Shown piece by piece: positions 12,651 through 43,704 of a DNA stretch of 64,000 nt (the stretch's first letter is position 1; each line of letters starts with the position of its first letter). This stretch comes from Anaerolineaceae bacterium (GTDB lineage: Bacteria > Chloroflexota > Anaerolineae > Aggregatilineales > Phototrophicaceae): contig JACKCG010000007.1 of NCBI GenBank assembly GCA_020634135.1, positions 81,550 through 145,549 of the forward strand, written 5' to 3'. The notes below the pieces were generated by a model. The model did no database searches, was not told the DNA's origin, and worked only from the letters and a program-made list of their open reading frames with translations. Made by a program: the position numbers and the translations under genes.

Positions 12651-13997
12651 TCATAGCCCGGCACGCCGGCGTTCGCGGCGATAATCTTCAGGGGTATCCA
12701 CATCCACAAGAATACTGTCGTTATCCACATTCACATAGGCGATACGATCCTGGTGAGCATTAATGACATCACGCGGAGCACCATCAGCAGGCAGCGCCAG
12801 GATTTCCGGCCAATAACGACGGTCAATGAGGATCGGATGCCCGCGCCGCATCTGATAGCTGGGCGCTACGATATCCCCCGCACCCTCAGCGTATGCCAGT
12901 AATATCTGGTTGATAATACGCGGCTGAATACGCGGTTGGTCGCCCAACACAACCAACGCTGCGGATACATGCGGGGGCATCGCCTGCAGGCCAACTTTCA
13001 AAGATGAGAGCATCTCGCCCTGAGCGTAGTCGCTATTATAGGCAATATTCGCACCCATCGGTGTCACACGGCTCGTGATTTCCCCGGCGTAATAACCAGT
13101 AACCACTGTCACATTTGTCAACCGTGCCAGATAGATTTGGTGAATAATATGCTCAATAATCGTCCGACGGCCTTCCCAGGGCAGCAGCATTTTGGGCCGT
13201 CCCATCCGCTGCGACATCCCGGCAGCCAGTGTCACGACCCCGATGTGGCGCTGGACTTCACACACCGGGTCTGCCGCCCGTGCCGAACCCAGCACAACGC
13301 TATGTACACGTGGCACACGCAGTATCAGATGCGCGGTCAAACGGGCACGAAGCCGCATAAACCCATTAGGCGGTGTCTGGTTGAGAAAGGCGATAACCCG
13401 CGCCTGTGCAGGGATACTTCGCAAGCCGAACTGATCGTCACGCAGCACCTGGGCTATCCAGGGGAACTTAACCCGGTTGCCAATCCCAAAACCATAGCGA
13501 TCATGAACAGCCTGCGCATTATACACATGATCCTCATCCAACGGCTGCCCTAAGACCGAAAGCCCTGCTATCGGAACGACAAGCGAAACCTCATCAGGGA
13601 TGACCGGCTCGTGACTCTTGGGCGCTTTGAGGGGTAATCCCCGCGCCCCATCGGCCTCAATCAACAGCACATCCGAGTCGACGGTATCCAATAAATAGGA
13701 TATGGCATCAGAACTAACGCCATAGACTTTATCACCCTGAATCCGGCCATAGAGAAACACAAAGCGAAAATCGCTCAAGGCTGTTGAGATTTCGCTCCGG
13801 TCACAGTCTACCGGAAGCGCGGCAGGCATCAGCTCGAGTTGGTCAAGGCCGATGCGGGTCGTGGTCGTCGCCAGCACTCGCCAACCGGAGTCGGCCAGTT
13901 CGTGCGCCAACGCGATCATAGTAGACGTCTTGCCACCAGCACCCACAAAAGCGATGACATCCCCGCGCACAATATCAAAGGCTTGTTGAAGTTTCAT
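12651..13997 (-). CDS. Fusion protein: YqeC-family accessory protein (N-terminal) + MocA-like molybdenum cofactor cytidylyltransferase (C-terminal)
   Basis: N-terminal VIAFVGAGGKTSTMIALA P-loop typical of YqeC. From about residue 250: VVTLAAGMSQRMGRPKMLL, VVLGDQP and RRGHPILI, typical of MobA/MocA NTP transferases. Confidence 0.8.
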   Translation of the reverse strand: MKLQQAFDIVRGDVIAFVGAGGKTSTMIALAHELADSGWRVLATTTTRIGLDQLELMPAALPVDCDRSEISTALSDFRFVFLYGRIQGDKVYGVSSDAISYLLDTVDSDVLLIEADGARGLPLKAPKSHEPVIPDEVSLVVPIAGLSVLGQPLDEDHVYNAQAVHDRYGFGIGNRVKFPWIAQVLRDDQFGLRSIPAQARVIAFLNQTPPNGFMRLRARLTAHLILRVPRVHSVVLGSARAADPVCEVQRHIGVVTLAAGMSQRMGRPKMLLPWEGRRTIIEHIIHQIYLARLTNVTVVTGYYAGEITSRVTPMGANIAYNSDYAQGEMLSSLKVGLQAMPPHVSAALVVLGDQPRIQPRIINQILLAYAEGAGDIVAPSYQMRRGHPILIDRRYWPEILALPADGAPRDVINAHQDRIAYVNVDNDSILVDVDTPEDYRRERRRAGL

Positions 13998-14847
13998 CCG
14001 TCTCCACCAGATACGAACGTACCTGAGGGGCGGCCAGGACTGCCTCTAGCACGCCTCCCCCTACTGCGAGTGATTTTTCAGAAATGGAGTAGCAGATTTT
14101 GACATCCCCGCGAGGGTCCAAATCTCCAATTTTCATACCGGCTCTGACCACGACCTGCTCGTGAATCAAGCCGCGCAGCACGCCAGAAAACGGCGCGATA
14201 ACTGGCTCGCCATTCAGGTTGGCGATCACTGCTCCAGCTTCAAGCTGCGCCCCAATGCGAACGGCAGGACGCACATGCCCGGCGGACGACGCCCGCAGCA
14301 CCCTGGAATGAGTCTGGCCCTTAACCTGTCCAGGCTCCCCTGTATCCGGCGCGGCACTACCCTGATATATGACCCGGCCCAGGTCATGCCCCCGATTGGT
14401 TTCGATAACGACATGGCAGTCCGCACCAACAGTGAAACCCGGCCCAAGCCCAATCACCAGCGGCGCATCGGTTATCCGTGTGTCGAGATTCACTTTTGCC
14501 AGCCGACCATCCACAATGACCACAGGCCGCAGTTCCGGCCATAAGCATAATCCTGGGTCTACGACCACCGGGATTTCGCCCGCCGCCAGAGTCGAAGCCA
14601 CATCATGGCGGTTGTCTACCAGACGTGCTGTCAACCCATCCACCGTGACGACCCTGTTGTAAACGGCATCGCCATAACTCACTGTCCGACGCACCAGCAG
14701 CGGCGACTCAAGTTCTGTCACCATTACCGGAAATCCGGCACGCCGCAACCGGTAGATCACGCCGCTCGCCAGATCACCCCCACCACGTACCACAACCAGA
14801 GCGCGGCTAAATAACACCGAGGCCATGTTCGCGCAGTGCCGCAACAA
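13975..14847 (-). CDS. yqeB: YqeB/EF2563-family selenium-dependent molybdenum hydroxylase system protein
   Basis: VVVRGGGDLASGVIYRLRRAGFPVMVTELESPLLVRRTVSYGDAVY N-terminal signature. The true start is probably ATG 14826 or GTG 14817, and it overlaps the upstream stop. Confidence 0.8.
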   Translation of the reverse strand: MLRHCANMASVLFSRALVVVRGGGDLASGVIYRLRRAGFPVMVTELESPLLVRRTVSYGDAVYNRVVTVDGLTARLVDNRHDVASTLAAGEIPVVVDPGLCLWPELRPVVIVDGRLAKVNLDTRITDAPLVIGLGPGFTVGADCHVVIETNRGHDLGRVIYQGSAAPDTGEPGQVKGQTHSRVLRASSAGHVRPAVRIGAQLEAGAVIANLNGEPVIAPFSGVLRGLIHEQVVVRAGMKIGDLDPRGDVKICYSISEKSLAVGGGVLEAVLAAPQVRSYLVETDETSTSL

Positions 14848-17038
14848 CTCGCTCAGGAGTTAAGGGTATGAAGTCCATCCAGATGCCCGTCGCATCATGC
14901 ACCGCCGCTACAATAGCCGGTGACAGCGGCAGGAACGGCATTTCGCCCATGCCTCGCGCCCCCCAGGGACCAATCGGGTCAGCATATTCCAGGATTACAG
15001 ACTTCACTTCATCCGGTACATCCAGGATGGTCGGAATGAGATAGGTGGAAAGGTATGGATTGAGGATACGTCCCTCTTGTGAGATAAGATTTTCCATAAT
15101 CGCGTAACCCTGTGCCTGTACTACTGCGCCTTCAATCTGCCCCTGCACAAGCTGCGGGTTCACCGCCTGACCGACATCATCCGCACAGATCACCCTTGCC
15201 AGGCGAATGTGGCCGGTCTCAATATCCACTTCAACCTCCACCGCCTCGGCCACATAACCATAGGCAAAGTTCGGCTCGCTCTTGCCGGTTTCCGGGTCAT
15301 AGGGCGTCGTGGCGGGCGGGCGGTACTGATATGTCGCAACGGCAGGTCGTTCCTCATTTCGCCACTTCTCCAGCGCCTGCTCCGCCGCCCCCTTGATAGC
15401 ATTCCCTGCCATAAACGTCATACGGGATGCCGAGACGCTGCCGGAATTCAGGGTTTCTGCCGTATCCTGGCCGATCAGCCGCACTTTTGCGAACGGCACA
15501 CCCGCCGCTTCAGCAGCCATCTGTATCATTACAGTATGTGTCCCCTGCCCGACTTCCGCCCCGGCATGGCGAACCACAACTTCCTCAATTTCGGTCTGAC
15601 CATACAATTCCACCGTCGCCCAACTTTGTTCGGGAGCGCCAAAGCTGAACCCGACATTCTTGAACGCAGCAGCGAACCCTACACCGCGTCGCAATGCGGG
15701 GTTATCCGGCTGAGGGTGCTGAGGACGTGACCAACCGATGTCGCCTTTTTTCCAGAAACTCTCACGGGCGCAGGCTTCAATCACCTGCGGGATACTCACC
15801 CCCGGCGGCAAGGGCGTTCCCACCGAAAGCAAACTCCCTTCTTGCAAGGCATTTCTCATACGGATTTCTACCGGATCAATACCGAGGGCCTCTGCCAACT
15901 TGTTCATCTGACCTTCAGCGGCAAAAGCACCCTGCGGCCCGCCAAACCCGCGAAATGCGCCACACGGGATGTTATTAGTGTAGACCCCATAAGTATCCAC
16001 GTGAATATTCGGAATTTCGTAAGGGCCTGTTGCCATCAAATTCGCGTTGCCCATCACCTTATTGGTGGTGTAGTTGTATGCCCCGGCGTCACCGATCACA
16101 ATAGCTTCGGCGGCGACTACCCTGCCGTCTCTGGTCGCACCCCATTTTGCCCGAATCCTCACCGGATGGCGCTTATGGTGATAAAGTATTGATTCTTCCC
16201 GGCTCCACTGGATTTTCACCGGGCGGCGCAGCTTCCAGGCCGCCAACGCCAGCACAATCTGGACGGACATATCCTCACGCCCGCCAAATGCCCCGCCAAT
16301 CGCCGGATAAATGACCCGCACCTGGTCTGCCGGCAGCCCCAACGCATGATAGATTTGTTCCTGATCCTCATGTACCCACTGCCCGGCTACAATCACCGTC
16401 ACCCGGCCTGCATCATCTATATAGCCGATACCGGCCTCCGGCTGAAGATAGGCATGTTCCTGGTATCCCGTGTAGTATTCGCCTTCTACGACGACATCGG
16501 CCTGTGTCCACCCGGCGGCCAAATCCCCTTTGCGAATTCGGTAATGACACAGCACATTGTTGGGATGATCGGCGTGGAGTCGGGGAGCACCTTCCGCCAT
16601 TGCCGCTTCGGCATCGAAAACAGCAGGCAGATCCTCGTAAGTGACATCCACCAACTGAACAGCCTCGGCTGCGGCGGCTTCGGTTTCCGCCACCACCACC
16701 GCAACGCAATCCATATAACAGCGCACAACGTCCGCGCCGGGAATGATACTGTTGCTACCCGGGCCACACAGCACCGGCTGGTCTAACATCGTCAGGCCGT
16801 ATTCGTTATTCGGCACGTCTTTCGCGGTAAACACCGCCACCACGCCCGGCAGCGCCGCCGCCTGTGTCGTATCAATCGCCACTACGCGAGCATGAACCCG
16901 GTCACTGAAGCGCAGCTTCATCCACAACTGCCCTTCCATACTAACATCGCCGGGGTAAACCGCCTCACCGGTTACTTTGCCTACTGCGTCAATGCGTTTG
17001 ACAGTATGCCCTACGGTAAAGGTTTTATCTTTTGCCAC
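14807..17038 (-). CDS. Xanthine dehydrogenase / aldehyde oxidase family molybdopterin-binding subunit
   Basis: 743 aa. N-terminal RIDAVGKVTGEAVYPGD, GGAFGGRED, GAFRGFGGPQG, and a C-terminal GMGE active-site-glutamate region. Confidence 0.9.
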   Translation of the reverse strand: MAKDKTFTVGHTVKRIDAVGKVTGEAVYPGDVSMEGQLWMKLRFSDRVHARVVAIDTTQAAALPGVVAVFTAKDVPNNEYGLTMLDQPVLCGPGSNSIIPGADVVRCYMDCVAVVVAETEAAAAEAVQLVDVTYEDLPAVFDAEAAMAEGAPRLHADHPNNVLCHYRIRKGDLAAGWTQADVVVEGEYYTGYQEHAYLQPEAGIGYIDDAGRVTVIVAGQWVHEDQEQIYHALGLPADQVRVIYPAIGGAFGGREDMSVQIVLALAAWKLRRPVKIQWSREESILYHHKRHPVRIRAKWGATRDGRVVAAEAIVIGDAGAYNYTTNKVMGNANLMATGPYEIPNIHVDTYGVYTNNIPCGAFRGFGGPQGAFAAEGQMNKLAEALGIDPVEIRMRNALQEGSLLSVGTPLPPGVSIPQVIEACARESFWKKGDIGWSRPQHPQPDNPALRRGVGFAAAFKNVGFSFGAPEQSWATVELYGQTEIEEVVVRHAGAEVGQGTHTVMIQMAAEAAGVPFAKVRLIGQDTAETLNSGSVSASRMTFMAGNAIKGAAEQALEKWRNEERPAVATYQYRPPATTPYDPETGKSEPNFAYGYVAEAVEVEVDIETGHIRLARVICADDVGQAVNPQLVQGQIEGAVVQAQGYAIMENLISQEGRILNPYLSTYLIPTILDVPDEVKSVILEYADPIGPWGARGMGEMPFLPLSPAIVAAVHDATGIWMDFIPLTPERVVAALREHGLGVI

Positions 17039-17095
17039 AGTTCACATCCATTTTCCATCAATGATTTCGCTAGACAATTCGGGTTGTGGATAGGT

Positions 17096-18862
17096 TCAAT
17101 GAGACGGCGGCAGGCCATTCATGACGTGGGTACGCTGGTAAATCCGCTGGACATCCCGGTTAAAAATACGCCGCAGGATCGCCACCGCTGTAGCATATGT
17201 GGGGTCTACGCCAGTATAGCTCAAGCTGCCCGCCCCCAGGTTATGCCCTTTGCTCATAGGCGTATCTGACGCATAATGCAAGAATCCGATGTCAAAAGAC
17301 ACACCGTACAGGTTCACAATCTCGTTATAGGGATGACGTTTGGGCCGGAATGCCTCATAGATGGCCGAAAGATACGGCCCGGCTTCCATCTCAATATCGG
17401 TGTACCCTTCATGGTAAAACACGCTCATATAGCGCGGATTTTGCAGGAATGTGCCCGGCGCACTGATGGCCTTCTGATTGTCCAGCACCATCCCAAACGC
17501 CATGTAAGAAGCAATATCATAGGCTGAAAAACTGTTGTCGAACAGATAGGTGTTCTGCGAATGTTCATCATGCACCACGTTCGGGATCATAACATCCCCG
17601 ACGCGCCCATTCAGAGTCGCGGCCTTGCCCATGATATATACCCCCATCAGATGACCGACACGTTCGGTAATCCGGCTGAGGATTTCGTAAGCAGCCATCC
17701 CTAACGGATAGTCAATGTTCAAAATCACCGCATCACTCTGGCTGAGCTGCGCCTGAGTGAACCCATCGGCCACCCGCGAGTCCAGCCAGTCAGCGCGCAG
17801 CTTATTAACCTCAATCACCTGGGATTCGATGTCAAAACCGCTGCGGCTGGAAATCCGATGGATGCCTATACTCTTTTCGTCAGCCGCCAGCATATCATGC
17901 GTTCGCTTATTGCCATCCACCAGATACTTCTTCAACACATAGTAGAGGAAGTTATCCAGATTTTTCGAAGCGCTCTCGTTTTTAATCTCATGATACTCGG
18001 TCAGAAGCTGCTCATAGCCGCAGGTCTTAATATATTCCAGCAGGTTTTCTTCCTCGCGCCGGGCAAACCCGGTGAGCAAATTCACGAGGGAATGGGTATT
18101 GCTGGAAACAAAGTAAACCGGGCGTTGTTCCAGATCAACTTCGTTATTCAACTGGTCTTGCAGTTCCGCCCACCAGTAAGCCGTCGCCCGCCGGTAATCT
18201 GCCAGGGAACCGGATAGAAGTTGCAGGCTGATCTGCTTACGTCGCTGCGACATCCGGTACAGGGTATCGAAAAACGCCACACCCCAGATGATCTCCAACC
18301 GGCGCAGATCATCTACCGCTAGGCGCAGTTCGCCCGCCAGTATGGCCGCTTCGTCATCCGTCAGGGGTGTCTGGCGGCCTTGATTGTCGCGCAGGAAGGC
18401 TTTGGTATCCCCACCCTGCAACAGCCGGTAGAATTTATTCCACTCGATCTGATAAGCCGTCAGGATCGGCACCAGGTCATCAATATCCGACCGACTGGCG
18501 ATAAATACCGCCAGGGTATTGCTCCCATTATGATGCATCCGACGGCGACGGCCAGGCGCTACCACGCGCGGCCATTGTGAGAGGTCAGTATAGCCCGCCT
18601 CATAAAAGGAACGTTCCAACTGGCCGACCAGCACCATGTCCACTTCTGCCATACATGGCGGCAAACGCAAACTGGAATACACCAACGCAGAGGTATCCGG
18701 CTCGGCACGACGGGCATGAACATGCAGCGATGACTCCATCGCCATGTGACTTTCTTCCAGCGTTTCCACCTGCACAGTATGAGTCGAACGCAGCAGCGAA
18801 TAATAGGTTCGCATGTAGAGTTCGATTTCTTCACTGCCAGTCTTTGGAACAGTACGATCCAT
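17096..18862 (-). CDS. Uncharacterised 588-aa protein with a C-terminal nucleoside phosphorylase/nucleosidase (PNP_UDP_1)-like domain
   Basis: C-terminal ~240 aa: AVILNIDYPLGMAAYE...GVYIMGKAATLNGRVGDVMIP...TDIEMEAGPYL resembles AMP nucleosidase / uridine phosphorylase cores. The N-terminal ~340 aa is not recognised. Confidence 0.55.
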   Translation of the reverse strand: MDRTVPKTGSEEIELYMRTYYSLLRSTHTVQVETLEESHMAMESSLHVHARRAEPDTSALVYSSLRLPPCMAEVDMVLVGQLERSFYEAGYTDLSQWPRVVAPGRRRRMHHNGSNTLAVFIASRSDIDDLVPILTAYQIEWNKFYRLLQGGDTKAFLRDNQGRQTPLTDDEAAILAGELRLAVDDLRRLEIIWGVAFFDTLYRMSQRRKQISLQLLSGSLADYRRATAYWWAELQDQLNNEVDLEQRPVYFVSSNTHSLVNLLTGFARREEENLLEYIKTCGYEQLLTEYHEIKNESASKNLDNFLYYVLKKYLVDGNKRTHDMLAADEKSIGIHRISSRSGFDIESQVIEVNKLRADWLDSRVADGFTQAQLSQSDAVILNIDYPLGMAAYEILSRITERVGHLMGVYIMGKAATLNGRVGDVMIPNVVHDEHSQNTYLFDNSFSAYDIASYMAFGMVLDNQKAISAPGTFLQNPRYMSVFYHEGYTDIEMEAGPYLSAIYEAFRPKRHPYNEIVNLYGVSFDIGFLHYASDTPMSKGHNLGAGSLSYTGVDPTYATAVAILRRIFNRDVQRIYQRTHVMNGLPPSH

Positions 18863-18877: not shown

Positions 18878-19240
18878 TTATTTACGGGACTGCTTCTTCA
18901 TATCCAATTCGCGCTTTTTCTTGGCGACACGACGTTTGTTACGCAGCGCTCGCTGCTCAAGAAGCTCTTTCTCACTGATTTTATCCATCGGGTTGCGATT
19001 CTTCGGCACAGCGGCAGCGATAATCAGCACCACAATCGCCCCTAAAATCAGGAAAATAACGCCGGCAACCGCCACCACAAGTTGATCGTAGGGCATCTGA
19101 CCGTTATTAAGCTGTGGCACGACGTATTGAATCGCCACCGGTGAAAGGATATAGGAAATGGCACCAAGTGCCAGCGCCAATACGAACCCAACAACCGGCC
19201 AAAAGGCCCTGTTACCCCCACCTCTATTCTCTGCCACCAA
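18878..19240 (-). CDS. Small two-TM membrane protein with a Lys/Arg-rich tail
   Basis: Two hydrophobic helices followed by KNRNPMDKISEKELLEQRALRNKRRVAKKKRELDMKKQSRK. No family recognised. Confidence 0.45.
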   Translation of the reverse strand: MVAENRGGGNRAFWPVVGFVLALALGAISYILSPVAIQYVVPQLNNGQMPYDQLVVAVAGVIFLILGAIVVLIIAAAVPKNRNPMDKISEKELLEQRALRNKRRVAKKKRELDMKKQSRK

Positions 19241-29661: not shown

Positions 29662-29690
29662 AACGAAACTTAGTCCTTTTGTGACAACGA

Positions 29691-35648: not shown

Positions 35649-36605
35649 CTATTTCGGCACGATGCGCGTGCCGGTTTCGCCACGCAGCGCCCGCGCCAGA
35701 TTCCAGGGATCAGTGATAATCGCCTGCGGGCCACCGTTCTGCACGAAATCTAACGCGGCTTCGATCTTGGGCAGCATACTCCCCACACCAAAATGCCCTT
35801 CGGCCATATACTGATTGGCTTCGCTGAGCGTCATCGTATCAAGGAAACGCTGGTCAGGCTTATTGAAGTTCAGGGCCACTTTTTCGACACCAGTCGAGAT
35901 TATCAGCAGGTCAGCCCGGAGTGTTTGCGCCAATAAACTGCTGGCACGGTCCTTATCAATCACCGCGTATACCCCTTTCAAGCCGCCGACCTCATTCCGC
36001 ACAACCGGAATACCGCCGCCGCCACAGGCAATGACGACATAGCCGCTCAGCATGAGTGCCTGAATCGCGTTGATTTCCTGGATAGACTGCGGTTTGGGTG
36101 AGGCCACCACCCGCCGCCAGCCACGCCCGGCATCTTCCATCACCTGCCAGCCCTCTGCCTCGAATTTACGCGCTTCAGCCTCGGTCATGAAACCACCGAT
36201 TGGCTTGGTCGGGTTCTCAAAAGCCGGGTCATTAGCATCCACCCGTACCTGGGTGACAACAGTAGCGCACGTCCGATTCATACCCAACCGGCGCAGCGAA
36301 TCGTCGAGTGCCTGTTGCAGCATGTAGCCGATGCTGCCCTGCGTGTCCGCCACGATCAAGTCAAGCGGGACATCGTGAATACCTTCTTTGGCCGCGATTT
36401 CCCCCCGCCGTAGAATAAAACCAACCTGCGGGCCGTTGCCGTGCGTCACAACCACATGCCATCCACCAGCCACCATCGCGGCGATGTGTTCACACGTCTG
36501 CCGTACCGCATCCCACTGGCGAGAAATACTGGGGTCTTTCGGGTCTGAAATTAAGGAATTGCCGCCAATTGCGACGATTGCCAGTTTTTCAATCATAGTT
36601 TTCAC
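35649..36605 (-). CDS. arcC: Carbamate kinase
   Basis: IVAIGGNSL, VVTHGNGPQVG, ACGGGGIPV and VIDKDRAS motifs. Confidence 0.92.
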   Translation of the reverse strand: MKTMIEKLAIVAIGGNSLISDPKDPSISRQWDAVRQTCEHIAAMVAGGWHVVVTHGNGPQVGFILRRGEIAAKEGIHDVPLDLIVADTQGSIGYMLQQALDDSLRRLGMNRTCATVVTQVRVDANDPAFENPTKPIGGFMTEAEARKFEAEGWQVMEDAGRGWRRVVASPKPQSIQEINAIQALMLSGYVVIACGGGGIPVVRNEVGGLKGVYAVIDKDRASSLLAQTLRADLLIISTGVEKVALNFNKPDQRFLDTMTLSEANQYMAEGHFGVGSMLPKIEAALDFVQNGGPQAIITDPWNLARALRGETGTRIVPK

Positions 36606-36752: not shown

Positions 36753-37733
36753 CTAGCGCATGGTCAAAGCCATCGCCGCTTTCTGAACATGCAGCCGGTT
36801 CTCGGCCTCGTCATACACCACACTCTGCGGCCCATCCAGCACGCCGTCCGTCACCTCGATATTGCGGTCAGCGGGCAGACAGTGCATGTAGATGGCATGA
36901 TCGTTCGCCAGTGCCATACGCCGTTCATCAGTGATCCAATTGGTATACTTCTTGCCGATTTTGGCTGATTCCGCGTTGTCCTCAGTCGTCATCCATGAAC
37001 CCCAACTCTTGGGATACACAATATCCGCGCCAGCAAACCCGGCATCAAAATCATCAAGGATTTCAAATGAACCGCCACTCCGATGCGTGTTTTCCTTTGC
37101 CTGTTCCACAATATCCGGCATCAGCTTGTATTCTGCCGGATGGGTCAAGCGCACATTCATCCCGAAGCGTGTCATCAGCAGCACCAGGCTTTGTGGCACG
37201 GAAATCGGCTTCTGGTAACTGGCGGCATACGCCCAACTGACATTAATGGTTTTGCCGCGCAGGTCACGCCCGAATTTCTCCATAATGGTCATCATGTCAG
37301 CCAGAATCTGGAACGGGTGATATACATCACATTGCATGTTCAGCACCGGCACCCGGCTGGCCGCAGCCACATCACGGATGTACTGGTTGCCAAATTTCCA
37401 ATCACATTGGCGGATGGCGATACCGTCGTTATAGCGTCCCAGGATTTCACCGATTTCCTTCGCGGTATCCCCATGTGAAATCTGGGTTGTCGTGCTGTCA
37501 ATAAACTGCGCATGGCCGCCCAACTGCGCCATACCAGCCTCGAAGCTTGCACGAGTCCGGGTACTGGTGAAGAAAAATAGCATTGCCAGCACTTTATCCC
37601 GCAGGTACGCATGGGATTCGCCCAACGCCCGTTTGCGTTTTAAGTCCCATGCCACATCCAGCAGGGTTTCGATCTCTTCTTTTGTCCATTCCTGGGTCGT
37701 GATAAGATCACGCCCACGCAGGTCAGTCTGCAT
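36753..37733 (-). CDS. ygeW: YgeW-like carbamoyltransferase (ATCase/OTCase family)
   Basis: FFTSTRTRASFE, TQISHGDTAKE, NMQCDVYHPFQILAD and HCLPA. The QIxHG(D/E)T and QCDxxHP variants match my recollection of YgeW rather than ArgF. It is shorter (326 aa) than E. coli YgeW. Confidence 0.72.
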   Translation of the reverse strand: MQTDLRGRDLITTQEWTKEEIETLLDVAWDLKRKRALGESHAYLRDKVLAMLFFFTSTRTRASFEAGMAQLGGHAQFIDSTTTQISHGDTAKEIGEILGRYNDGIAIRQCDWKFGNQYIRDVAAASRVPVLNMQCDVYHPFQILADMMTIMEKFGRDLRGKTINVSWAYAASYQKPISVPQSLVLLMTRFGMNVRLTHPAEYKLMPDIVEQAKENTHRSGGSFEILDDFDAGFAGADIVYPKSWGSWMTTEDNAESAKIGKKYTNWITDERRMALANDHAIYMHCLPADRNIEVTDGVLDGPQSVVYDEAENRLHVQKAAMALTMR

Positions 37734-37832
37734 AATTCAACTCTCCTTAAACAACCGTTTCTATGATTCTTGAGGAACAAACGGGGGCAAATACCCCCAA
37801 ATGAAATGCCACATATTGTACACGAACACGTG

Positions 37833-38429
37833 TTAGAGATGCTCCACCAGATTCCACGAACGGCAAATATACCGCTCGGTATCGTAACGCTCCAGGATGA
37901 CTATGCCGGTATTATCGAGAACGCTATTCTGTTGCAGCGCCGCCGCGTTCACGCAAAGGTAAGGCGTGACCGTCCCTGTGATGCCGCCGTGTGTCACCAG
38001 CAGCGCCGTTTCCTTGACATGGTGTAAAGCGCGGGAGAAACGCTCAAAACCCTGGCGATACGACTCGCCGCCGGGAAATGCCGCCTCCCACTCACCAGCT
38101 CGCCAGCGGAACGCTACTGCCATAAACTCATCCCAGGCAGCTTCATCTACCCGTCCTTCAAAATCTCCGCAGTCCATCTCGCGTAGTCCATCTTCAACCT
38201 CAAGTGGCAGGTTCAGCTTTTTAGCGACAATCTGCGCGGTCTGCTCCGCCCGATGAAACGGACTGTGTAAAATCCGCGAGATGCCTTTATCCGCCAGCCA
38301 GTCAGCGGCTTTGGCAGCCTGCTCACGTCCCAGGTCGGTGAGATCGCCTTCAAGACTGCGGCAGGTCAGGCGGCGCTCCACATTCACCACACTCTGCCCG
38401 TGCCGCATCAGGTAGATTAAGTCAGTCAT
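37833..38429 (-). CDS. Histidine phosphatase family protein (phosphoglycerate mutase-like)
   Basis: IYLMRHGQS (RHG), SPFHRAEQTA, and a C-terminal LLVTHGG motif. Confidence 0.85.
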   Translation of the reverse strand: MTDLIYLMRHGQSVVNVERRLTCRSLEGDLTDLGREQAAKAADWLADKGISRILHSPFHRAEQTAQIVAKKLNLPLEVEDGLREMDCGDFEGRVDEAAWDEFMAVAFRWRAGEWEAAFPGGESYRQGFERFSRALHHVKETALLVTHGGITGTVTPYLCVNAAALQQNSVLDNTGIVILERYDTERYICRSWNLVEHL

Positions 38430-38435: not shown

Positions 38436-39641
38436 TTACTTTTGCAGCAGCGCCGGGAGCAGAGCGTACCACTCCGTCGCCCGCACCACATCATCCAGCG
38501 GCACCTGGTCAATCACCGTATGCGCGTGAATTTCATCTCCCGGCCCAAAACCAATGCTTGGGATACCGGCTTTACCCATCCAGTAAATACCATTGGTCGA
38601 GAAATCCCACTTTCCAGTCGGTGTCGGATCACCCCACAGCAGTTTCCCGGCCTGCACCCCGGCTTGTACATATGGATTCTCTTCGGGCAGCGCCCAGGCA
38701 GGAAAGATTTTATCTACCGGGAATACAAATCCGGTGTAGCTGGGATCATCGTAAAACAGGATTGATGCTTCAATATCCTTACGATCCCCAATCAGACGCT
38801 GGATGCGTTCGAGTTCGGCCTGCGGTTCTTCGCCAAATGTCACGCGGCGGTCAATGTAGATCAGGGCTTCATCGGGCACGGCGTTGATGCTCGGCGTCTT
38901 GACGTGCATATCCGTCACCGTGATGCGGCCATGCCCCAGGAACGGGTCGTCGCCCAGTTCCGGCTCAAGTTTACTGATGCCTTCAATCACCGGCAGCAGC
39001 TTGTAGATAGCATTATCCCCCAGGAAGTTGCTGGCGGCGTGGGCGCTCTTGCCCTTCGCAACCACCTGCATCTCAACGCGGCCTTTATGCCCCCGGTAGA
39101 CCTGCATCTTGGTCGGTTCACCGATCACCACGAAATCCGGGCGCAATCCTTCCGCTTCAACCAGCGCGTGTGGCGCGATGCCGTCGCACCATTCCTCCAT
39201 ATTGCCAAAGTAATAGCCGGTCACGCCTTCCAGCAGGCCGAGTTCCTTCGCCAGCGCCAGCCCGTAGATCATGCCGGGCGTGCTGCCCTTCTCGTCACAC
39301 GCGCCGCGTGCGAAAAAGACGCCATTTTCAACCTTACCCTGGAAAGGGTCCCAGTCCCAGCTATCCGGGTCGCCAATCCCGACCGTGTCAATGTGGCTGT
39401 CATAAAGCAGCTTAACCGGGCCATCCCCGATTTTGCCGACAACATTGCCCATCTGGTCGAACCACACGTCGTCAAAGCCGAGTTTCTTCATTTCAGCTTC
39501 GGCGCGTTCCCCTACTGCGCGAATCTGACTGTCATAGCTGGGGATAGCGCACAACTCTTTTAAAAAGGTGATGATATCCTCGCGCTGCGCCGCCACGCGG
39601 GATTTAATTGTTTCTATACTTTGCGGACTAACCATCTTCAA
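38436..39641 (-). CDS. ygeY: YgeY-family M20 metallohydrolase
   Basis: LYDSHIDTV, RGACDEKG and EEW...G motifs of M20 peptidases. Context with ygeW, ssnA and yqeB/C. Confidence 0.82.
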   Translation of the reverse strand: MKMVSPQSIETIKSRVAAQREDIITFLKELCAIPSYDSQIRAVGERAEAEMKKLGFDDVWFDQMGNVVGKIGDGPVKLLYDSHIDTVGIGDPDSWDWDPFQGKVENGVFFARGACDEKGSTPGMIYGLALAKELGLLEGVTGYYFGNMEEWCDGIAPHALVEAEGLRPDFVVIGEPTKMQVYRGHKGRVEMQVVAKGKSAHAASNFLGDNAIYKLLPVIEGISKLEPELGDDPFLGHGRITVTDMHVKTPSINAVPDEALIYIDRRVTFGEEPQAELERIQRLIGDRKDIEASILFYDDPSYTGFVFPVDKIFPAWALPEENPYVQAGVQAGKLLWGDPTPTGKWDFSTNGIYWMGKAGIPSIGFGPGDEIHAHTVIDQVPLDDVVRATEWYALLPALLQK

Positions 39642-39722: not shown

Positions 39723-41447
39723 TTACACAAACAATTCAACCATCTTGAATTGCTCAACATCCACCAGCCCCAAATCAGTCAGTTTAAGTTTAGGGATCAC
39801 CTCCAGCGCCATGAAACTCATTGCCATGAATGGATCGTGCATGGTGCTGCCTAACGCCTGTGCCTGTCGCGTAAGCGCATCATAATCGTGCCGCACATCA
39901 TCCAGCGGGCGTTCGCTCATCAGACCGGCCACCGGCAGCGACAGCTCGCCTAATACCTGATCGCCATCCACCGCAACCAGGCCACCGCGAATATCCACCA
40001 CGGCCTGCACTGCCCGGCGCATACTGGCATCATCCACACCGATGACCACCAGGTTATGGTGGTCATGGGCCACCGTTCCGGCAATCGCGCCGCGCTTGAG
40101 ACCAAATCCCTTGATAAATCCTTTGCCTATCCCGCCCGTAGCCCGGTGGCGCTCGACCACCGCCATTTTCAGTATGTCGCGTTCGGGGTCGGATACCGCC
40201 AGGCCATCCACAATCCGCGCATCTTCGACAACATGACCGGTCACAACCTGGTCGCCCACCGCACCAATCACCCGAATCCGGCTGGTCTGAGCGGGGATTG
40301 CGAAGTCCAGCGAATCAAGGCGGACGTTCATTGAACTGCGCAGGTCTATCGGGCGCAAGGGGGTTTTCTCGGTGAGCATTTTGCCGTTTTCAGCCACCAG
40401 TTTACCGCCCCGGAAGACCATCTCAGGACGCAGGTTGAGCATGTCGCTGAATACCACGATGTCGGCTCGCTTCCCCGGCGCAATCACGCCATGCTCGTGT
40501 AATCCGAAGTATTGCGCCGTGTTAAGCGTCCCCATGCGAATTGCCATCACGGGATCAATCCCCTCCGCAATAGCCGTCCGTACCATATAATCAATCGAAC
40601 CATCATCAATCAGGCTGGCTGGAACACGGTCATCGGTACAGAAGCACAGGCGGGTATGATTTTCCGGCGTCACCAGCGGCAGCAGCGGGCGCAGATTACG
40701 TGTGGTCGTCCCTTCACGGATAAACACTGTCAATCCCAGGCGCAGTTTTTCCAGCGCCTCTTCGACCGTGGTGCATTCGTGTTCGCTGCCGATTCCCGTA
40801 GAAACATAAGCATTGAGTTCCTTACCGGTCAGTGCCGGGCAATGGCCGTCGAGCACCATTTTTCCAAACAATGCGATCTTATCCAGCATCCCTTCGTCGC
40901 CGTAGACAACACCGGGATAATTCATCACCTCTGCCAGTCCCAGCACCCAATTGTGGTTGACAAGCTGGGCTAAATCCTCAGCCTCCAACCGTGCCCCACT
41001 GGTTTCCATATGTGTCGCCGGCACACAGCTCGATGCCATCACATACATGCTCATCGGGCCGTTCTTGGCCCGTTCGAGCATGAAACGAATCCCTTCCAGC
41101 CCCAGCACATTCGCAATTTCATGAGGATCCGTAATCACGGTTGTGACACCATGTGTCAGCACCGCGCGGGAAAATTCGGGCGGGGTACACAGACTGCTTT
41201 CGATATGCACATGGGCATCAATAAAGCCAGGGCATACATATCGCCCGCCCAGATCAATTTCCTGATGGGCGTTGTAGCCCGCTCCTATCGCCGCGATGTG
41301 CGAACCCTGTATTAAGATGTCTGTCGGGTAGATTTCGCCCGTCCACACATTCACCAGGCGGGCATTCCGCAATGCCAGCGTGGCTGGCTGTTCACCGCGC
41401 GCGACAACCAACCGGTCAACCAGCGTCATATTCACTATCCCTTTCAA
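39723..41447 (-). CDS. ade: Adenine deaminase
   Basis: PGFIDAHVHIESS, VITDPHEIANV and a ~570-aa two-domain architecture. Confidence 0.9.
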   Translation of the reverse strand: MKGIVNMTLVDRLVVARGEQPATLALRNARLVNVWTGEIYPTDILIQGSHIAAIGAGYNAHQEIDLGGRYVCPGFIDAHVHIESSLCTPPEFSRAVLTHGVTTVITDPHEIANVLGLEGIRFMLERAKNGPMSMYVMASSCVPATHMETSGARLEAEDLAQLVNHNWVLGLAEVMNYPGVVYGDEGMLDKIALFGKMVLDGHCPALTGKELNAYVSTGIGSEHECTTVEEALEKLRLGLTVFIREGTTTRNLRPLLPLVTPENHTRLCFCTDDRVPASLIDDGSIDYMVRTAIAEGIDPVMAIRMGTLNTAQYFGLHEHGVIAPGKRADIVVFSDMLNLRPEMVFRGGKLVAENGKMLTEKTPLRPIDLRSSMNVRLDSLDFAIPAQTSRIRVIGAVGDQVVTGHVVEDARIVDGLAVSDPERDILKMAVVERHRATGGIGKGFIKGFGLKRGAIAGTVAHDHHNLVVIGVDDASMRRAVQAVVDIRGGLVAVDGDQVLGELSLPVAGLMSERPLDDVRHDYDALTRQAQALGSTMHDPFMAMSFMALEVIPKLKLTDLGLVDVEQFKMVELFV

Positions 41448-42336
41448 TTACCAGCATGTCTACTTCTGCTATTGGATTCTGTATGACCCACACCGGGTCC
41501 TGCATATAGCGCTTTCGCACCCGGTTTACGTACCACGAGTCTAACTCGACCAATGGGGCATTTCGGGCAGTAATCCATTCCGCTTCATCAAGCGGCTCGC
41601 CCTCCTCAATTGAAGCCGCAAAAACAAGTTCAAGCTCCCCTTGTTCGACATCCTGCCACAGACCAACCCACTGTAAATCGGGTCGCAATCCGCACAAATC
41701 ATTAATCCGCTGTGACAACTCGCCCCAGGGGGATTGTGAACCAGCACATGGTACGCGCGGCAGCACACACTGCCGCCCGGTGGGCAGTGTCAGAATGCGG
41801 CGGTGGTCTTCGTCCCACAAAACCGCAACCGCTCGCACAGTGAAGCGGGGGTAGCGCGGCTCTGGATGACCGGAAAGCAGGTTCTTAACCCATCGCCAGC
41901 GCAATCTCGATTTCATTCGCCGTAGTTCGTCAGGTGGCGTCTCGATGACACGTGGAGCGGGGCGCACGTCGGAGATGGCGTCAAACAGCATCCATTCCCA
42001 CGATAAGTCATCCGGTAGGGCACGCAGATCAAAAAACGTATTTTCACGTGTTTCGTGGGTCGCCTGCTGCAATTCACCCCCCAACACCCAACCGGAATAC
42101 AGTATGTTCAGGCGATCCCAGCCGGCCCAGTAATAAAGACCAACCGGCTGGTCGAGATGGGCGACGACGCCCGTTTCCTCGCGCACTTCGCGCACGGCTG
42201 CCGCTGCCAGCGGCTCACCCCTATCCAGCCGGCCACCGGGCAGATTCCAGATATTGAGATCACCCCGGCGAGAGAGCAGGATACGACCATCGTCATCCAG
42301 TACAGCGCAGTTGACTCCCAGGCGCAGAAACGTCAC
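41416..42336 (-). CDS. Tandem-domain NUDIX hydrolase
   Basis: Canonical Nudix box GGRLDRGEPLAAAAVREVREETGV in the N-terminal half. The C-terminal half has a Nudix-like beta-grasp pattern without the catalytic box. Confidence 0.82.
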   Translation of the reverse strand: MTFLRLGVNCAVLDDDGRILLSRRGDLNIWNLPGGRLDRGEPLAAAAVREVREETGVVAHLDQPVGLYYWAGWDRLNILYSGWVLGGELQQATHETRENTFFDLRALPDDLSWEWMLFDAISDVRPAPRVIETPPDELRRMKSRLRWRWVKNLLSGHPEPRYPRFTVRAVAVLWDEDHRRILTLPTGRQCVLPRVPCAGSQSPWGELSQRINDLCGLRPDLQWVGLWQDVEQGELELVFAASIEEGEPLDEAEWITARNAPLVELDSWYVNRVRKRYMQDPVWVIQNPIAEVDMLVIERDSEYDAG

Positions 42337-42348
42337 AGGACTGCCCCG

Positions 42349-43704
42349 CTAACCCATTCCATCAATCAGACTGCGCGAAAGGCCGTTATGTCGCTCGACC
42401 AGAACCGGCAGATCATCCGTGAGCAGCACGCCATCCCGCACCGTCACCCGCCCATTGATAATAGACAAATCCACAGCGGGTGACTGGCCGAATACCAGCC
42501 CGGCCACCGGGTCATGCAGCGCCCCGGCAAATCCCACCGTATCCAACCGGAAAGCTACCAGGTCAGCAGCCATGCCAGGTGCAAGCGCACCCACATCATC
42601 ACGTCCCAGGACAGCAGCACCGCCCAACGTCGCAATTTCCAGGGCTTCGCGGGCGGAAAGCCCAGCGGGATCCCCCATCACCCGTTGCAAGAGCATCGCC
42701 TGACGCGCTTCGTTCAGAAGATGTCCGGCATCATTGGAAGCAGAACCATCCACACCCAGGCCAACCGGCACCCGCGCATCCAGCATCTTCCGCACCGGGG
42801 CAATACCGGAGGCCAACCGCATATTCGAGTTCGGACAGTGGCAAACGCCGGTATGTGTGCGAGCAAACAGTCCGATTTCACTGTCATCCAACTGAACACA
42901 ATGGGCGTGCCAGACATCATCTCCCACCCAACCAACATCCTGAGCATAATCGCCCGGACGGTAACCGAACGTTTCCAGGCTGTAGGCTACATCATTCACA
43001 TTTTCCGCCAGATGGGTGTGCAGGTGGACGCCATAGCTGCGGGCGAGGGCTGCTGCTTCACGCATTAAATCCTGGGTCACACTGAACGGCGAACACGGCG
43101 CGACGACGACGCGAAGCATGGCGTGGCGGTTAGCGTCGTGATACTGCTCGATCACCCGGCGCGTATCGCGCAGAATCTCGGCCTCGCTCTCAACAACGCT
43201 ATCCGGCGGTAGACCGCCCTGGCTTTCGCCCAGACTCATTGAGCCACGAGCTGCATGAAATCGCATCCCCATTTCCTGGGCAGCCCGGATTTCATCATCC
43301 AGCCTGACATCATTGGGGAAAATATACAGATGATCGCTGGAAGTTGTGCAGCCGGAAAGCATCAGCTCAGCCATCGCGAGTTTAGCGGAGACATACACCA
43401 TCTCGCCCGTCAGGCGACTCCAGACCGGATAGAGTGTTTTGAGCCAGCCGAACAACTCGACATCCTGCGCCAGCACACGGGTCAGACTCTGATACATGTG
43501 GTGGTGTGTGTTGATGAGGCCGGGTAAGACAATGTGACGCGATAAGTCGAACACCTCACCGGGCGCTTCGGCGGGCATATCCCCCAATAAACCCACCGCT
43601 TCAATAACGTTATCACGGATAAACACCGCGCCGTTTGCGATCTCGCGGCGGGCAGAGTCCATCGTGACAAGTGTATGGATGTTTTTCAACAGGATTGTGT
43701 GCAT
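42349..43704 (-). CDS. 8-oxoguanine deaminase-like amidohydrolase (COG0402 group)
   Basis: LPGLINTHHHMYQSLTR, WLKTLYPVW, APCSPFSV, HTHLAEN, CHCPNSNMRLASG and GVDGSASND. The ATG at 43704 has an AAAGGAG SD 5 nt upstream. Confidence 0.78.
   Translation of the reverse strand: MHTILLKNIHTLVTMDSARREIANGAVFIRDNVIEAVGLLGDMPAEAPGEVFDLSRHIVLPGLINTHHHMYQSLTRVLAQDVELFGWLKTLYPVWSRLTGEMVYVSAKLAMAELMLSGCTTSSDHLYIFPNDVRLDDEIRAAQEMGMRFHAARGSMSLGESQGGLPPDSVVESEAEILRDTRRVIEQYHDANRHAMLRVVVAPCSPFSVTQDLMREAAALARSYGVHLHTHLAENVNDVAYSLETFGYRPGDYAQDVGWVGDDVWHAHCVQLDDSEIGLFARTHTGVCHCPNSNMRLASGIAPVRKMLDARVPVGLGVDGSASNDAGHLLNEARQAMLLQRVMGDPAGLSAREALEIATLGGAAVLGRDDVGALAPGMAADLVAFRLDTVGFAGALHDPVAGLVFGQSPAVDLSIINGRVTVRDGVLLTDDLPVLVERHNGLSRSLIDGMG

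Follow-up and report, generated by a model that had tools for sequence, protein, structure and literature searches.

A probable Anaerolineae version of the reductive purine degradation cluster, with F420 genes beside SsnA

The reductive breakdown of uric acid by way of 2,8-dioxopurine ("yanthine") was reconstituted in 2025 (10.1101/2025.04.24.650524; PMC12507026; PMC12990295), and its steps are experimentally established for Escherichia coli and Clostridium. Here we compare this pathway with a run of 28 genes in a 64,000-nt stretch of DNA from an Anaerolineaceae bacterium (contig JACKCG010000007.1, positions 81,550 to 145,549; the whole stretch is called "the window" below). The run is probably the Anaerolineae (Chloroflexota) version of the reductive uric acid/purine (2,8-dioxopurine/yanthine) degradation cluster. 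In the established pathway, urate is first reduced to 2,8-dioxopurine, a step for which E. coli uses XdhD-YgfM and C. sporogenes a selenium-dependent XdhAC, after which YgfK (or UacX) dearomatizes the ring, SsnA generates ureidomethylhydantoin, and HyuA generates 2,3-diureidopropanoate. One carbamoyl group is then taken by YgeW and used by YqeA to make ATP, YgeY releases 2,3-diaminopropionate, and YgeX converts this product to pyruvate (PMC12507026; 10.1101/2025.04.24.650524). An earlier note made on the window from sequence alone (the original prediction) had called the chemistry of SsnA, YgeY, and YgeW not fully resolved, a statement that the 2025 reconstitution makes outdated. The family memberships reported here are observed, and from them we infer the activity of each enzyme.

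The corresponding E. coli genes are arranged as ygeW-ygeX-ygeY-hyuA-yqeA/yqeB-yqeC-mocA/ygfK-ssnA-ygfM-xdhD. Common to both systems, at 31-51% identity, are SsnA, YgeY, carbamate kinase, the C-terminal half of YqeB, YqeC, MocA, and a YgeW-like protein. Purine deaminases lie nearby in both, and both pair a carbamoyltransferase with carbamate kinase as a module for ATP formation. In contrast, the window is without HyuA, YgeX, YgfM/XdhD, the sigma-54 regulator, and the purine permease, and in place of YgfK it carries an F420 reductase resembling Mer, the NADPH-dependent F420 reductase NpdG, and genes for F420 tail biosynthesis. Its molybdenum (Mo) enzyme is a two-gene, xanthine dehydrogenase (XDH)-like hydroxylase, its YqeB is split, and its YqeC and MocA are fused. 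The genes for DUF6909, u224, u79, a ThrC-like enzyme, a CysK-like enzyme, and the glycosyltransferase GT2 are additions relative to E. coli. The original prediction of a purine or urate cluster unlike the enterobacterial one is borne out at its core.

Another point of comparison is the marker set for selenium-dependent Mo hydroxylases (TIGR03309, TIGR03172, TIGR03310, TIGR03314, TIGR03526, and TIGR03316), which reportedly goes back to Haft and Self in 2008. Four of these six models are passed in the window, and the MocA model is missed by 18 bits. The YgeW model is missed widely, there is no SelD in the window, and YqeB is absent at the equivalent position in three related loci (L090, L091, and L060). 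The full set had been predicted to be present. YqeB, YqeC, SsnA, YgeY, and carbamate kinase do pass their NCBIfam models, whereas the score of MocA, 168, stays under the cut-off of 186, and the YgeW-like protein fails both YgeW models.

The clusters of C. sporogenes and Clostridioides difficile (XdhAC, which is the 2,8-dioxopurine dehydrogenase or DOPDH, with UacX and UacY) likewise use lineage-specific families at the reductase and decarbamoylase steps, and they share the association with YqeB and YqeC. They differ from the window in having a fused Fe-S/Mo DOPDH that lacks a flavin adenine dinucleotide (FAD) subunit, a PydA-like UacX, and, in C. difficile, the hydrolase UacY in the role of YgeW and carbamate kinase. 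The proposed electron carrier in the window is F420, in place of ferredoxin or directly acting NAD(P)H.

The closest precedent comes from an SsnA sequence similarity network, in which Chloroflexota SsnA clusters were noted to contain a luciferase-family F420 enzyme in place of YgfK or UacX, and this enzyme was proposed to be a yanthine reductase (Li et al. 2025; PMC12507026). Thus, substitution of F420 for YgfK in Chloroflexota has been put forward in print before, on bioinformatic grounds, and we found no later paper on this variant in the literature. The window is an instance of the Chloroflexota SsnA neighborhoods with a PF00296 "putative F420-dependent reductase" described by Li et al., and its closest relatives are Anaerolineae. 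Their report gives family co-occurrence only. It does not mention the embedded cofC, cofD, cofE, fbiB-C, and npdG genes, the two sub-types, or the conserved proteins without assigned role described below, nor does it note that the PF00291 and PF00185 matches here are neither YgeX nor strict YgeW. The present work extends this precedent with a complete description of the cluster and its two sub-types, with the findings that the Mo enzyme is XDH-like, that YqeB is split and YqeC fused to MocA, and that genes for the F420 tail are embedded in the cluster, and with candidate proteins for the three steps that lack an assigned enzyme.

A gene run conserved among Anaerolineae

Every long open reading frame (ORF) between positions 12651 and 43737 lies on the minus strand, which gives 28 co-directional genes in 31 kb. 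The tally consists of 27 ORFs of at least 119 aa plus a 79-aa ORF (33125-33364, minus strand) that occupies the sole large gap, and 98% of the run is coding. A run of 28 genes on a single strand had been predicted, and the ORF map together with the conserved 79-aa ORF agrees with that count. Overlaps occur at ten junctions and measure 4-160 nt when the longest possible ORFs are taken, although some are smaller under the Logan gene calls; the remaining gaps are 3-147 nt. The G+C content is even along the whole window. A tRNA-Val gene with a terminator-like hairpin precedes the start of the run, and a convergent K+ channel gene abuts its end. When the whole window was scanned with Rfam, only tRNA-Val was found, and no purine, xanthine, guanidine, or other riboswitch.

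Family assignments were made with curated NCBIfam cut-offs, Pfam scans, and tblastn with E. coli proteins. Relatives were collected by an SsnA-based scan that kept one genome per species and returned 499, of which the best 80 (SsnA 67-83% identical to that of the window) were used for all counts of loci given below. These are metagenome-assembled genomes of Anaerolineae-type Chloroflexota (Aggregatilineales, Phototrophicaceae, and Anaerolineaceae), apart from two records whose bins are probably mislabelled. A lookup with the DUF6909 protein located the same genome in Logan assembly SRR20682006, and an exact-match lookup with SsnA returned no record.

In tblastn searches with all window proteins, the gene order recurs in all 80 loci. 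OZ243936.1, OZ242001.1, and CBDCXQ010000001.1 are examples of genomes with this type of cluster. The first half of the near-invariant order is (8oxoGD)-Ade-YgeY-(HisPhos)-CTase-CK-ThrC-like-GT2-u79-PLP464-u224-SsnA, and the second half is SsnA-NpdG-CofE-FbiB-C-CofD-CofC-LLM-(u856-XdhC)-Metallophos-FAD/FeS-DUF6909-MoSub, where brackets mark optional genes. In these strings, 8oxoGD stands for the 8-oxoguanine deaminase-family enzyme, Ade for adenine deaminase, HisPhos for the histidine phosphatase, CTase for the carbamoyltransferase, CK for carbamate kinase, LLM for a luciferase-like F420-dependent oxidoreductase, Metallophos for the metallophosphoesterase, and FAD/FeS and MoSub for the two Mo hydroxylase subunits. 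The original prediction named two outcomes that would speak against it, namely marker proteins that do not hit their models and a gene order unique to this genome. Instead, the markers match their models with the exception of YgeW, and the order is found in 80 of the 80 Anaerolineae genomes retrieved.

A sister type of cluster is arranged as 8oxoGD-HyuA-(YgeY or second carbamoyltransferase)-CTase-CK-ThrC-like-GT2-u79-PLP-u224-SsnA-NpdG. It is headed by 8-oxoguanine deaminase orthologues 65-68% identical to that of the window, and its HyuA, which is 37-40% identical to E. coli HyuA, sits exactly in the slot that the Nudix and adenine deaminase genes take in the window. HyuA lies between the 8-oxoguanine deaminase gene and YgeY in this sub-type (L084, L086, L089, L065, L069, and L077). 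Most of these loci have, instead of YgeY, a second carbamoyltransferase (317-318 aa) that shares only about 26% identity with the first and could provide a second ATP per purine. Locus L069 also carries an Fe-S/Mo fusion protein whose identity to E. coli XdhD is 38% and whose best family is the XdhD-type TIGR03313. In other loci the whole upstream block is inverted.

The clusters therefore come in two natural sub-types, one with HyuA and an XdhD-type enzyme and the other with adenine deaminase, an XDH-like enzyme, and DUF6909. That the core survives such module swaps is a stronger functional argument than conserved order, and because the sister clusters combine the same core with HyuA, and in L069 with an XdhD-type enzyme, the cluster family is tied to the known pathway. 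The two sub-types also provide a natural comparison for finding the missing enzymes, and may help to assign functions to DUF6909, which has thousands of members, and to the u224 family.

The F420 block and the proposed ring opening and ATP formation

Six genes for the formation, reduction, and use of F420 follow SsnA directly, and their order is invariant. SsnA and these genes are as follows.

29691-31034, minus strand: SsnA aminohydrolase, 35% identical to E. coli SsnA (NF005540, 503 against a cut-off of 444; TIGR03314, 478 against 455)
28990-29730, minus strand: NpdG, NADPH-dependent F420 reductase (TIGR01915, 218 against 150)
28218-29030, minus strand: CofE, F420-0:L-glutamate ligase (TIGR01916, 255 against 181)
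27595-28221, minus strand: stand-alone nitroreductase-type domain like the C terminus of FbiB (TIGR03553, 141 with a cut-off of 250), overlapping CofE by 4 nt
26672-27754, minus strand: CofD, 2-phospho-L-lactate transferase (TIGR01819, 313 against 257)
25953-26567, minus strand: CofC guanylyltransferase (TIGR03552, 177 against 105)
24844-25851, minus strand: LLM, luciferase-like F420-dependent oxidoreductase of 335 aa, Mer-like (Pfam Bac_luciferase, 228 bits)

NpdG is found in 78 of the 80 loci, always directly after SsnA, and the two ORFs overlap. The LLM gene, six genes from SsnA, occurs in 69 loci with a median identity of 87.5%, the highest in the cluster together with that of the carbamoyltransferase. 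Its best NCBIfam matches are the Mer F420 families (186 and 184 bits, compared with at most 39 bits for models of FMN-dependent enzymes), both short of the Mer equivalog cut-offs of 276 and 349. The closest solved structure is again Mer (PDB 8QQ8, 1Z69, 1EZW, and 1F07), with 151 bits over residues 15-319. No match to E. coli YgfK was found by tblastn in the window or the 80 loci, and no UacX-type family was matched by the window genes in NCBIfam or Pfam. The window thus combines the features of the F420 variant, which are an SsnA no more than 15 genes from a PF00296 F420-type enzyme, the lack of YgfK and UacX, and a Chloroflexota host.

On balance, we favor the assignment of LLM as the 2,8-dioxopurine (yanthine) reductase that replaces YgfK or UacX. 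Although F420 genes had been listed among the extras of the cluster in the original prediction, the block is conserved beside SsnA and is integral to the cluster as the probable stand-in for the missing YgfK, a role that Li et al. inferred earlier from gene neighborhoods. Embedding of the F420 tail biosynthesis genes within the cluster has not been described before.

By analogy with Mer, the LLM enzyme would use a hydride from F420H2 to reduce the C6=N1 bond of 2,8-dioxopurine, as the counterpart of YgfK in E. coli and of UacX in Clostridioides. Both Mer and LLM would move the F420H2 hydride to a carbon bonded to a ring nitrogen in a bicyclic N-heterocycle, whereas LLM differs from Mer in its expected substrate and in its bacterial, non-methanogenic host. 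NpdG would recharge F420 from NADPH, and CofC, CofD, CofE, and the FbiB-C-type domain, a proposed dehydro-F420-0 reductase, would build the F420 tail on the spot. The two parts that are joined in actinobacterial FbiB are encoded separately in the window (27595-29030, minus strand). The presence of tail biosynthesis inside the cluster suggests that the purine pathway is a major consumer of F420 in these bacteria.

If the Mer-like enzyme does reduce 2,8-dioxopurine, it would give F420 a clear catabolic role in Chloroflexota, and pathway engineers could replace the large Fe-S flavoprotein YgfK with a small enzyme of one subunit. The reductive urate pathway is of medical interest in relation to gout, hyperuricaemia, and engineered uricolytic probiotics, and the window represents an environmental version from outside the gut.

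Opening of the six-membered ring of dihydro-2,8-dioxopurine would fall to SsnA, whose function is taken from the reconstituted pathway (PMC12507026; 10.1101/2025.04.24.650524). Three further genes are candidates for the ATP-forming and hydrolytic steps.

38436-39641, minus strand: YgeY M20 hydrolase, 41% identical to E. coli YgeY (TIGR03526, 474 against 321)
36753-37733, minus strand: short YgeW-like carbamoyltransferase of 326 aa, with 37% identity to E. coli YgeW along the entire protein
35649-36605, minus strand: carbamate kinase of the YqeA/ArcC type, 51% identical to E. coli YqeA (NF009007, 408 against 266; TIGR00746, 375 against 358)

The carbamoyltransferase adjoins carbamate kinase and has a median identity of 87% across the loci. 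It scores below both YgeW models (TIGR03316, 208 against 500; NF005538, 225 against 453) and below the ornithine carbamoyltransferase (OTC) models. The YgeW motifs WAYxxSYxKPxSVPQ and ADIVYPKSW are present and the OTC motif SMG is absent. An OTC in an ATP-forming module of the arginine deiminase type was considered and rejected, since no arcA accompanies it and the motifs are those of YgeW. The carbamoyltransferase is predicted to phosphorolyze one ureido group to carbamoyl phosphate, from which carbamate kinase would form ATP. YgeY would hydrolyze the remaining ureido group to give 2,3-diaminopropionate.

Opening of the hydantoin ring is probably carried out by a hydantoinase encoded elsewhere or by an unrecognized protein of the cluster. 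Some Anaerolineae carry HyuA-like genes outside the cluster, which makes a copy elsewhere in this genome plausible. These encode dihydropyrimidinases 58-60% identical to the cluster type (L085, 10001-11359; L088, 10001-11401) and lie near an 8-oxoguanine deaminase orthologue, FolD, and DnaJ-domain genes, directly upstream of the nuo operon and with no SsnA cluster nearby. For the final step, one of two fold-type-II pyridoxal phosphate (PLP) enzymes in the run probably replaces YgeX and would yield pyruvate and ammonia.

34386-35627, minus strand: threonine synthase-like (ThrC-like) PLP enzyme of 413 aa (NF006050, 317 against 303)
31716-33110, minus strand: CysK/CBS-like PLP enzyme (PLP464) of 464 aa with N- and C-terminal extensions (Pfam PALP)

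The ThrC-like enzyme retains the PLP lysine (K113), has T at the position of YgeX D120, and occurs in 63 loci, always between carbamate kinase and GT2. The PLP464 enzyme, present in 68 loci, retains K80 and has T for YgeX D120 and N for D189. Its closest solved structures are cysteine synthases (best score 109 bits), and its match to YgeX is a local stretch of 68 aa. The two enzymes are candidates for the YgeX step. We hold the proposed substitutes for the hydantoinase and for YgeX with less confidence than the assignment of the reductase.

The molybdenum hydroxylase and the weight of the evidence

At the downstream end of the run lie the genes for the Mo hydroxylase and its predicted maturation.

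21485-22402, minus strand: XdhC-family maturation factor (NF045664, 236, and TIGR02964, 121, both under cut-off)
19250-20752, minus strand: fused subunit with an N-terminal FAD-binding part (NCBIfam, residues 9-312) and C-terminal 2x[2Fe-2S] part (residues 338-494); Pfam domains found in the Logan gene call
18878-19240, minus strand: predicted membrane-spanning protein of 120 aa with two hydrophobic stretches, poorly conserved in sequence
14807-17038, minus strand: Mo-cofactor-binding subunit of 743 aa, XDH-like hydroxylase (no NCBIfam cut-off reached)
13975-14847, minus strand: YqeB of the C-terminal-half type, 290 aa, 49% identical to residues 270-524 of E. coli YqeB (TIGR03309, 334 against 220)
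12651-13997, minus strand: YqeC-MocA fusion of 448 aa, last gene of the run (TIGR03172, 161 against 73, residues 14-212; TIGR03310, 168 with a cut-off of 186, residues 254-441)

A Mo subunit, a fused FAD/FeS subunit, and an XdhC-family protein had been predicted, and family matches confirm all three. The XdhC-family assignment stands, with the qualification that the protein corresponds by tblastn to the N-terminal half of E. coli YqeB (38% identical to residues 3-265). The two halves of E. coli YqeB (541 aa) match two separate genes, which shows YqeB to be split here. Identity to the E. coli proteins is 35% for YqeC and 31% for MocA. The fusion of these two is also found in L090 and L091, and it follows the Mo genes wherever the 10-kb flank reaches.

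The Mo subunit scores 565 bits with PucD, 472 with XdhA, 458 with the selenium-dependent XDH model, and 313 with the XdhD-type TIGR03313. It retains the bovine xanthine oxidase (XO) residues E802, R880, E1261, and F1009, and has S at the position of A1078. Its PDB scores are highest in sum for a selenium-dependent nicotinate dehydrogenase (296 plus 162 bits), with bovine XO at 291 bits. DOPDH enzymes are distinguished by the changes F1009V and A1078T/S, and lie nearest the group of selenium-dependent nicotinate dehydrogenases (Liu et al., 10.1101/2025.04.24.650524). The original prediction implied an equivalent of XdhD by pointing to the genes that flank xdhD in E. coli. Instead, the Mo enzyme keeps the XO residues, and the PucD and XdhA models rank above XdhD. 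An enzyme that appears XDH-like rather than XdhD-like has not been described before in such a cluster, and neither has a lack of HyuA and YgeX.

The two-gene Mo hydroxylase would form urate, take urate to 2,8-dioxopurine, or both, after maturation by the split YqeB (the XdhC-like gene plus the YqeB gene) and the YqeC-MocA fusion. Because YqeB and YqeC lie directly downstream of the Mo subunit in overlapping ORFs, the arrangement that marks selenium-dependent Mo hydroxylases is present, and these two genes are what points to a selenium dependence of this enzyme. In L090 (14119-15468), L091 (14139-15491), and L060, the Mo subunit is followed directly by YqeC-MocA without YqeB, and L090 is without the XdhC-like gene as well. 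The YqeB half-genes are therefore variable members, a finding that bears on how universal a selenium dependence would be in this clade. A small ORF holds the slot of the 120-aa protein in L090 and L091.

Several observations weigh against reading the run as a reductive urate cluster. HyuA was not found in the 64-kb window by tblastn with the E. coli protein, and the canonical-looking adenine deaminase in the HyuA slot is a poor substitute for it. The same kind of search with YgeX found no orthologue in the window, only local similarity to the two fold-type-II PLP enzymes, neither of which keeps YgeX D120. No XdhD-type urate reductase was identified among the window genes. E. coli XdhD has Q at both the E802 and the R880 positions, its E606 has no counterpart in the Mo subunit, and of the two DOPDH signature changes the Mo subunit carries A1078S alone. 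Pfam scans revealed no purine transporter in the window and, among the remaining ORFs, neither selD in the 64 kb nor a gene for Fo synthase (CofG/CofH or FbiC). The absence of ygfK, hyuA, and ygeX (by tblastn) and of selD and a purine permease (by Pfam scans) from the 64-kb window had been predicted, and none was found. Scans for sigma-70 promoters and intrinsic terminators gave counts not above those in shuffled sequence, and neither defined operon boundaries. Furthermore, the flanking genes for purine nucleoside phosphorylase (PNP), PanB, PanC, FolD, guanylate kinase, and a large PA14/MAM protein are as syntenic as the run itself. Since these unrelated flanks are syntenic too, conserved order alone is weak evidence for the function of the non-canonical members.

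These points leave appreciable room, though less than an even chance, for a split pathway. In such a case the Mo enzyme would be an ordinary XDH that converts hypoxanthine and xanthine to urate, and an XdhD/DOPDH-type enzyme, HyuA, and perhaps YgeX would be encoded elsewhere in the genome. The window would then hold an incomplete pathway with an enlarged, salvage-type front end. The XO-type residues of the Mo subunit and the rank of PucD and XdhA above the XdhD model fit this arrangement, as do the use of an XdhD-type enzyme and HyuA by the sister clusters, the HyuA-like genes beside nuo genes in L085 and L088, and the adenine deaminase, PNP, and Nudix genes, which suit a front end that needs XDH. 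Speaking against it, the XdhD-type gene of L069 is located, like the Mo genes here, at the downstream end of its cluster, S at A1078 is one of the two DOPDH signature changes, and the top summed PDB score belongs to the selenium-dependent nicotinate dehydrogenase, whose group is the nearest to DOPDH according to Liu et al. Conversely, all three steps that lack orthologues might be performed by non-homologous enzymes within the cluster. These would be an XDH-like urate reductase matured by YqeB and YqeC, a novel type of hydantoin-opening hydrolase (DUF6909, u224, or the metallophosphoesterase), and a CysK- or ThrC-like PLP enzyme that disposes of diaminopropionate or albizziin, with the F420 tail genes serving mainly purine catabolism. 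We regard this combination as unlikely. If the last part of it were true, it would represent a new physiological role for F420 in bacteria.

It is similarly doubtful that the run is a mosaic held together by synteny, in which only the deaminases, Mo enzyme, SsnA, YgeY, carbamoyltransferase, and carbamate kinase serve purine breakdown. The F420/NpdG/LLM block, the ThrC-like/GT2/u79/PLP464/u224 block, and the membrane protein would then be unrelated operons kept by descent, as the equally syntenic housekeeping flanks might suggest. The resemblance of GT2 and the GT-C-like membrane protein to envelope glycosylation genes, the pass of the ThrC-like enzyme with a threonine synthase model, the gaps of 99-147 nt between some genes, and a hairpin that resembles a terminator (37799-37782) are compatible with such an origin. 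However, every variant has the F420 block and the ThrC-to-u224 block in the interval from carbamate kinase to the Mo genes, even where neighboring modules are inverted or where HyuA is swapped for adenine deaminase, YgeY for the second carbamoyltransferase, or XdhD for the XDH-like enzyme. In addition, SsnA overlaps NpdG, u224 is 3 nt from SsnA, no locus offers another reductase candidate, and LLM is under the strongest conservation. With a different N-heterocycle as substrate, or with a purine route that bypasses 2,8-dioxopurine and the hydantoin intermediate, the cluster could do without XdhD, HyuA, and YgeX. The three canonical steps without orthologues, the conserved DUF6909, u224, and u79 proteins, and the fact that PLP enzymes of the CysK/ThrC kind catalyze beta-replacement and not ammonia-lyase chemistry would all be in keeping with this alternative. 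We nevertheless consider it very improbable because SsnA and YgeY score above the cut-offs of equivalog-level models, the window encodes two purine deaminases and a PNP, and sister clusters with the same core contain HyuA and an XdhD-type enzyme.

Proposed front-end enzymes, unassigned proteins, and neighboring genes

In the preferred reading, a reductive urate cluster, substrates would be supplied by a set of front-end enzymes, most of them at the upstream end of the run.

42349-43737, minus strand: 8-oxoguanine deaminase family amidohydrolase of 462 aa, first gene of the run (NF006055, 707 against 532)
41416-42336, minus strand: Nudix hydrolase of 306 aa (Pfam NUDIX at residues 5-107 only)
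39723-41447, minus strand: adenine deaminase of 574 aa (TIGR01178, 630 against 472)
37833-38429, minus strand: histidine phosphatase superfamily protein of 198 aa (all NCBIfam matches under cut-off, e.g., TIGR03162, 93 against 163)
20810-21424, minus strand: metallophosphoesterase of 204 aa (Pfam Metallophos, 48 bits), found in 58 loci
8833-9687, minus strand: inosine/guanosine-specific PNP (NF006054, 369 against 218; TIGR01700, 339 against 293)

The Nudix hydrolase, the histidine phosphatase, the metallophosphoesterase (a possible nucleotide phosphatase of the front end), possibly DUF6909, and the PNP outside the run would convert nucleotides and nucleosides to free bases. Adenine deaminase and the 8-oxoguanine deaminase-family enzyme would then yield oxopurines, with the latter as an entry step from 8-oxoguanine (or guanine) to urate (or xanthine). 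The two deaminases had been predicted, and both exceed their NCBIfam cut-offs. Adenine deaminase shares 40% identity with E. coli AdeD, and all of the metal-binding and catalytic residues that were checked, as described for the E. coli and A. tumefaciens enzymes, are conserved. A hidden hydantoinase, suggested by its position in the HyuA slot, is largely rejected for this enzyme, which retains the AdeD residues and passes TIGR01178 by 158 bits.

The Nudix gene occurs in one of the 80 loci. It had been described as a tandem Nudix, and this is not supported. A single ORF carries a single Nudix box (residues 35-56) with no detectable internal repeat (z = -0.2), and no family is matched by the C-terminal portion of about 150 aa. 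The histidine phosphatase is an optional member found in 15 loci. It is also not the only one in the genome, since a second gene of the superfamily lies far from the cluster (62968-63579, plus strand; Pfam His_Phos_1, 194 bits). Between the histidine phosphatase and carbamoyltransferase genes, a 99-nt gap contains a GC-rich hairpin with a T-rich tail (37782-37799, minus strand). This hairpin has no counterpart in the other intergenic gaps of the run and may serve as an internal terminator or attenuator.

The PNP gene sits 3 kb past the end of the run on the same strand and is followed by a gene for a 264-aa protein without a family (8042-8836, minus strand). The K+ channel gene that separates PNP from the run (10615-12648, plus strand) looks like an insertion. 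In L090, PNP comes after YqeC-MocA with one small ORF between them, which indicates that the cluster may extend to PNP and makes this enzyme a possible outlying member.

The run also encodes several proteins without an assigned role.

33374-34393, minus strand: GT2 glycosyltransferase, polyprenyl-phosphate sugar synthase (ArnC/PgfS) type, with transmembrane (TM) helices at its C-terminal end (NF047588, 263, and NF007986, 178, both under cut-off)
33125-33364, minus strand: u79, conserved protein of 79 aa, helical by eye (tblastn matches in 62 loci; no Pfam match)
31038-31712, minus strand: u224, 224 aa (no Pfam or PDB sequence match), found in 70 loci
22305-24875, minus strand: u856, membrane protein of about 851 aa with many TM helices and a C-terminal soluble domain (no Pfam or NCBIfam family)
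17096-18862, minus strand: DUF6909 protein of 588 aa, between two Mo hydroxylase subunit genes (PF21850, 734 bits)

Of these, DUF6909, u224, and GT2, together with the two PLP enzymes, are conserved additions not described before. The DUF6909 protein had been called nucleosidase-like. It belongs to Pfam family DUF6909, and its likeness to nucleoside phosphorylases consists of short C-terminal motifs without statistical support. Neither phmmer nor a 23-sequence profile found a sequence match in the PDB, and hhalign against E. coli Amn and the window PNP gave probabilities below 1%. In its AF2 model (pLDDT 69), residues 413-553, which form the C-terminal domain, are unreliable. Foldseek returned nothing significant from the PDB (best E = 0.9), only many weak matches to UP, MTAN, and PNP. 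Nor did the C-terminal domain match any Pfam family significantly in a permissive scan.

For u224, the AF2 model has a pLDDT of 89.6, and Foldseek matches its N-terminal domain to PUA-like (YTH/ASCH) folds with a probability of 0.99 and an E value of about 3e-3. This predicted fold suggests that u224 binds a base or nucleoside. All of its 2301 homologs are unnamed. Gaps of 3 nt on either side of the gene suggest translational coupling to PLP464 and SsnA.

The GT2 gene is found in 68 loci, and its start overlaps the stop of the ThrC-like gene by 8 nt. The optional u856 (39 loci) is co-present with XdhC. By eye, it looks like a GT-C glycosyltransferase that might partner GT2, and neither protein has a visible link to purine chemistry. 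Different GT-C-like polytopic membrane proteins occur at varied positions in the clusters of different genomes (L030, 2530-4675; L009, 5382-6730; the window, 22305-24875), always with the conserved GT2.

Other inserts in related loci are heterogeneous, and include HEAT-like repeat proteins, further GT-C-like membrane proteins, a CBS protein, and a transporter. HyuA, YgeX, and YgfK are not among the inserted genes of related loci, save in three type-B loci. Repeat-rich inserts of about 380-420 aa occur at varied positions (L002, 1938-3275; L010, 3074-4430; L023, 427-1759). They start with MLEGLD and end with PTNLLSFFYGLPDSREELRKLIAES, and resemble mobile immunity or SMI1-like cargo.

Beyond the start of the run, sister genomes have an adjoining block that encodes a PA14/MAM-domain protein, a guanylate kinase-like protein, and FolD. 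The window has counterparts of all three: a PA14/MAM-domain protein of 1441 aa (48455-52780, minus strand), a guanylate kinase-like protein of 338 aa just under the TIGR03263 cut-off (47248-48264, minus strand), and FolD (53017-53898, plus strand). Here the PA14/MAM-FolD block appears inverted, and genes for a YgfZ/GcvT-like protein, an OmpR-type regulator, dCTP deaminase, and tRNA-Val intervene between it and the cluster.

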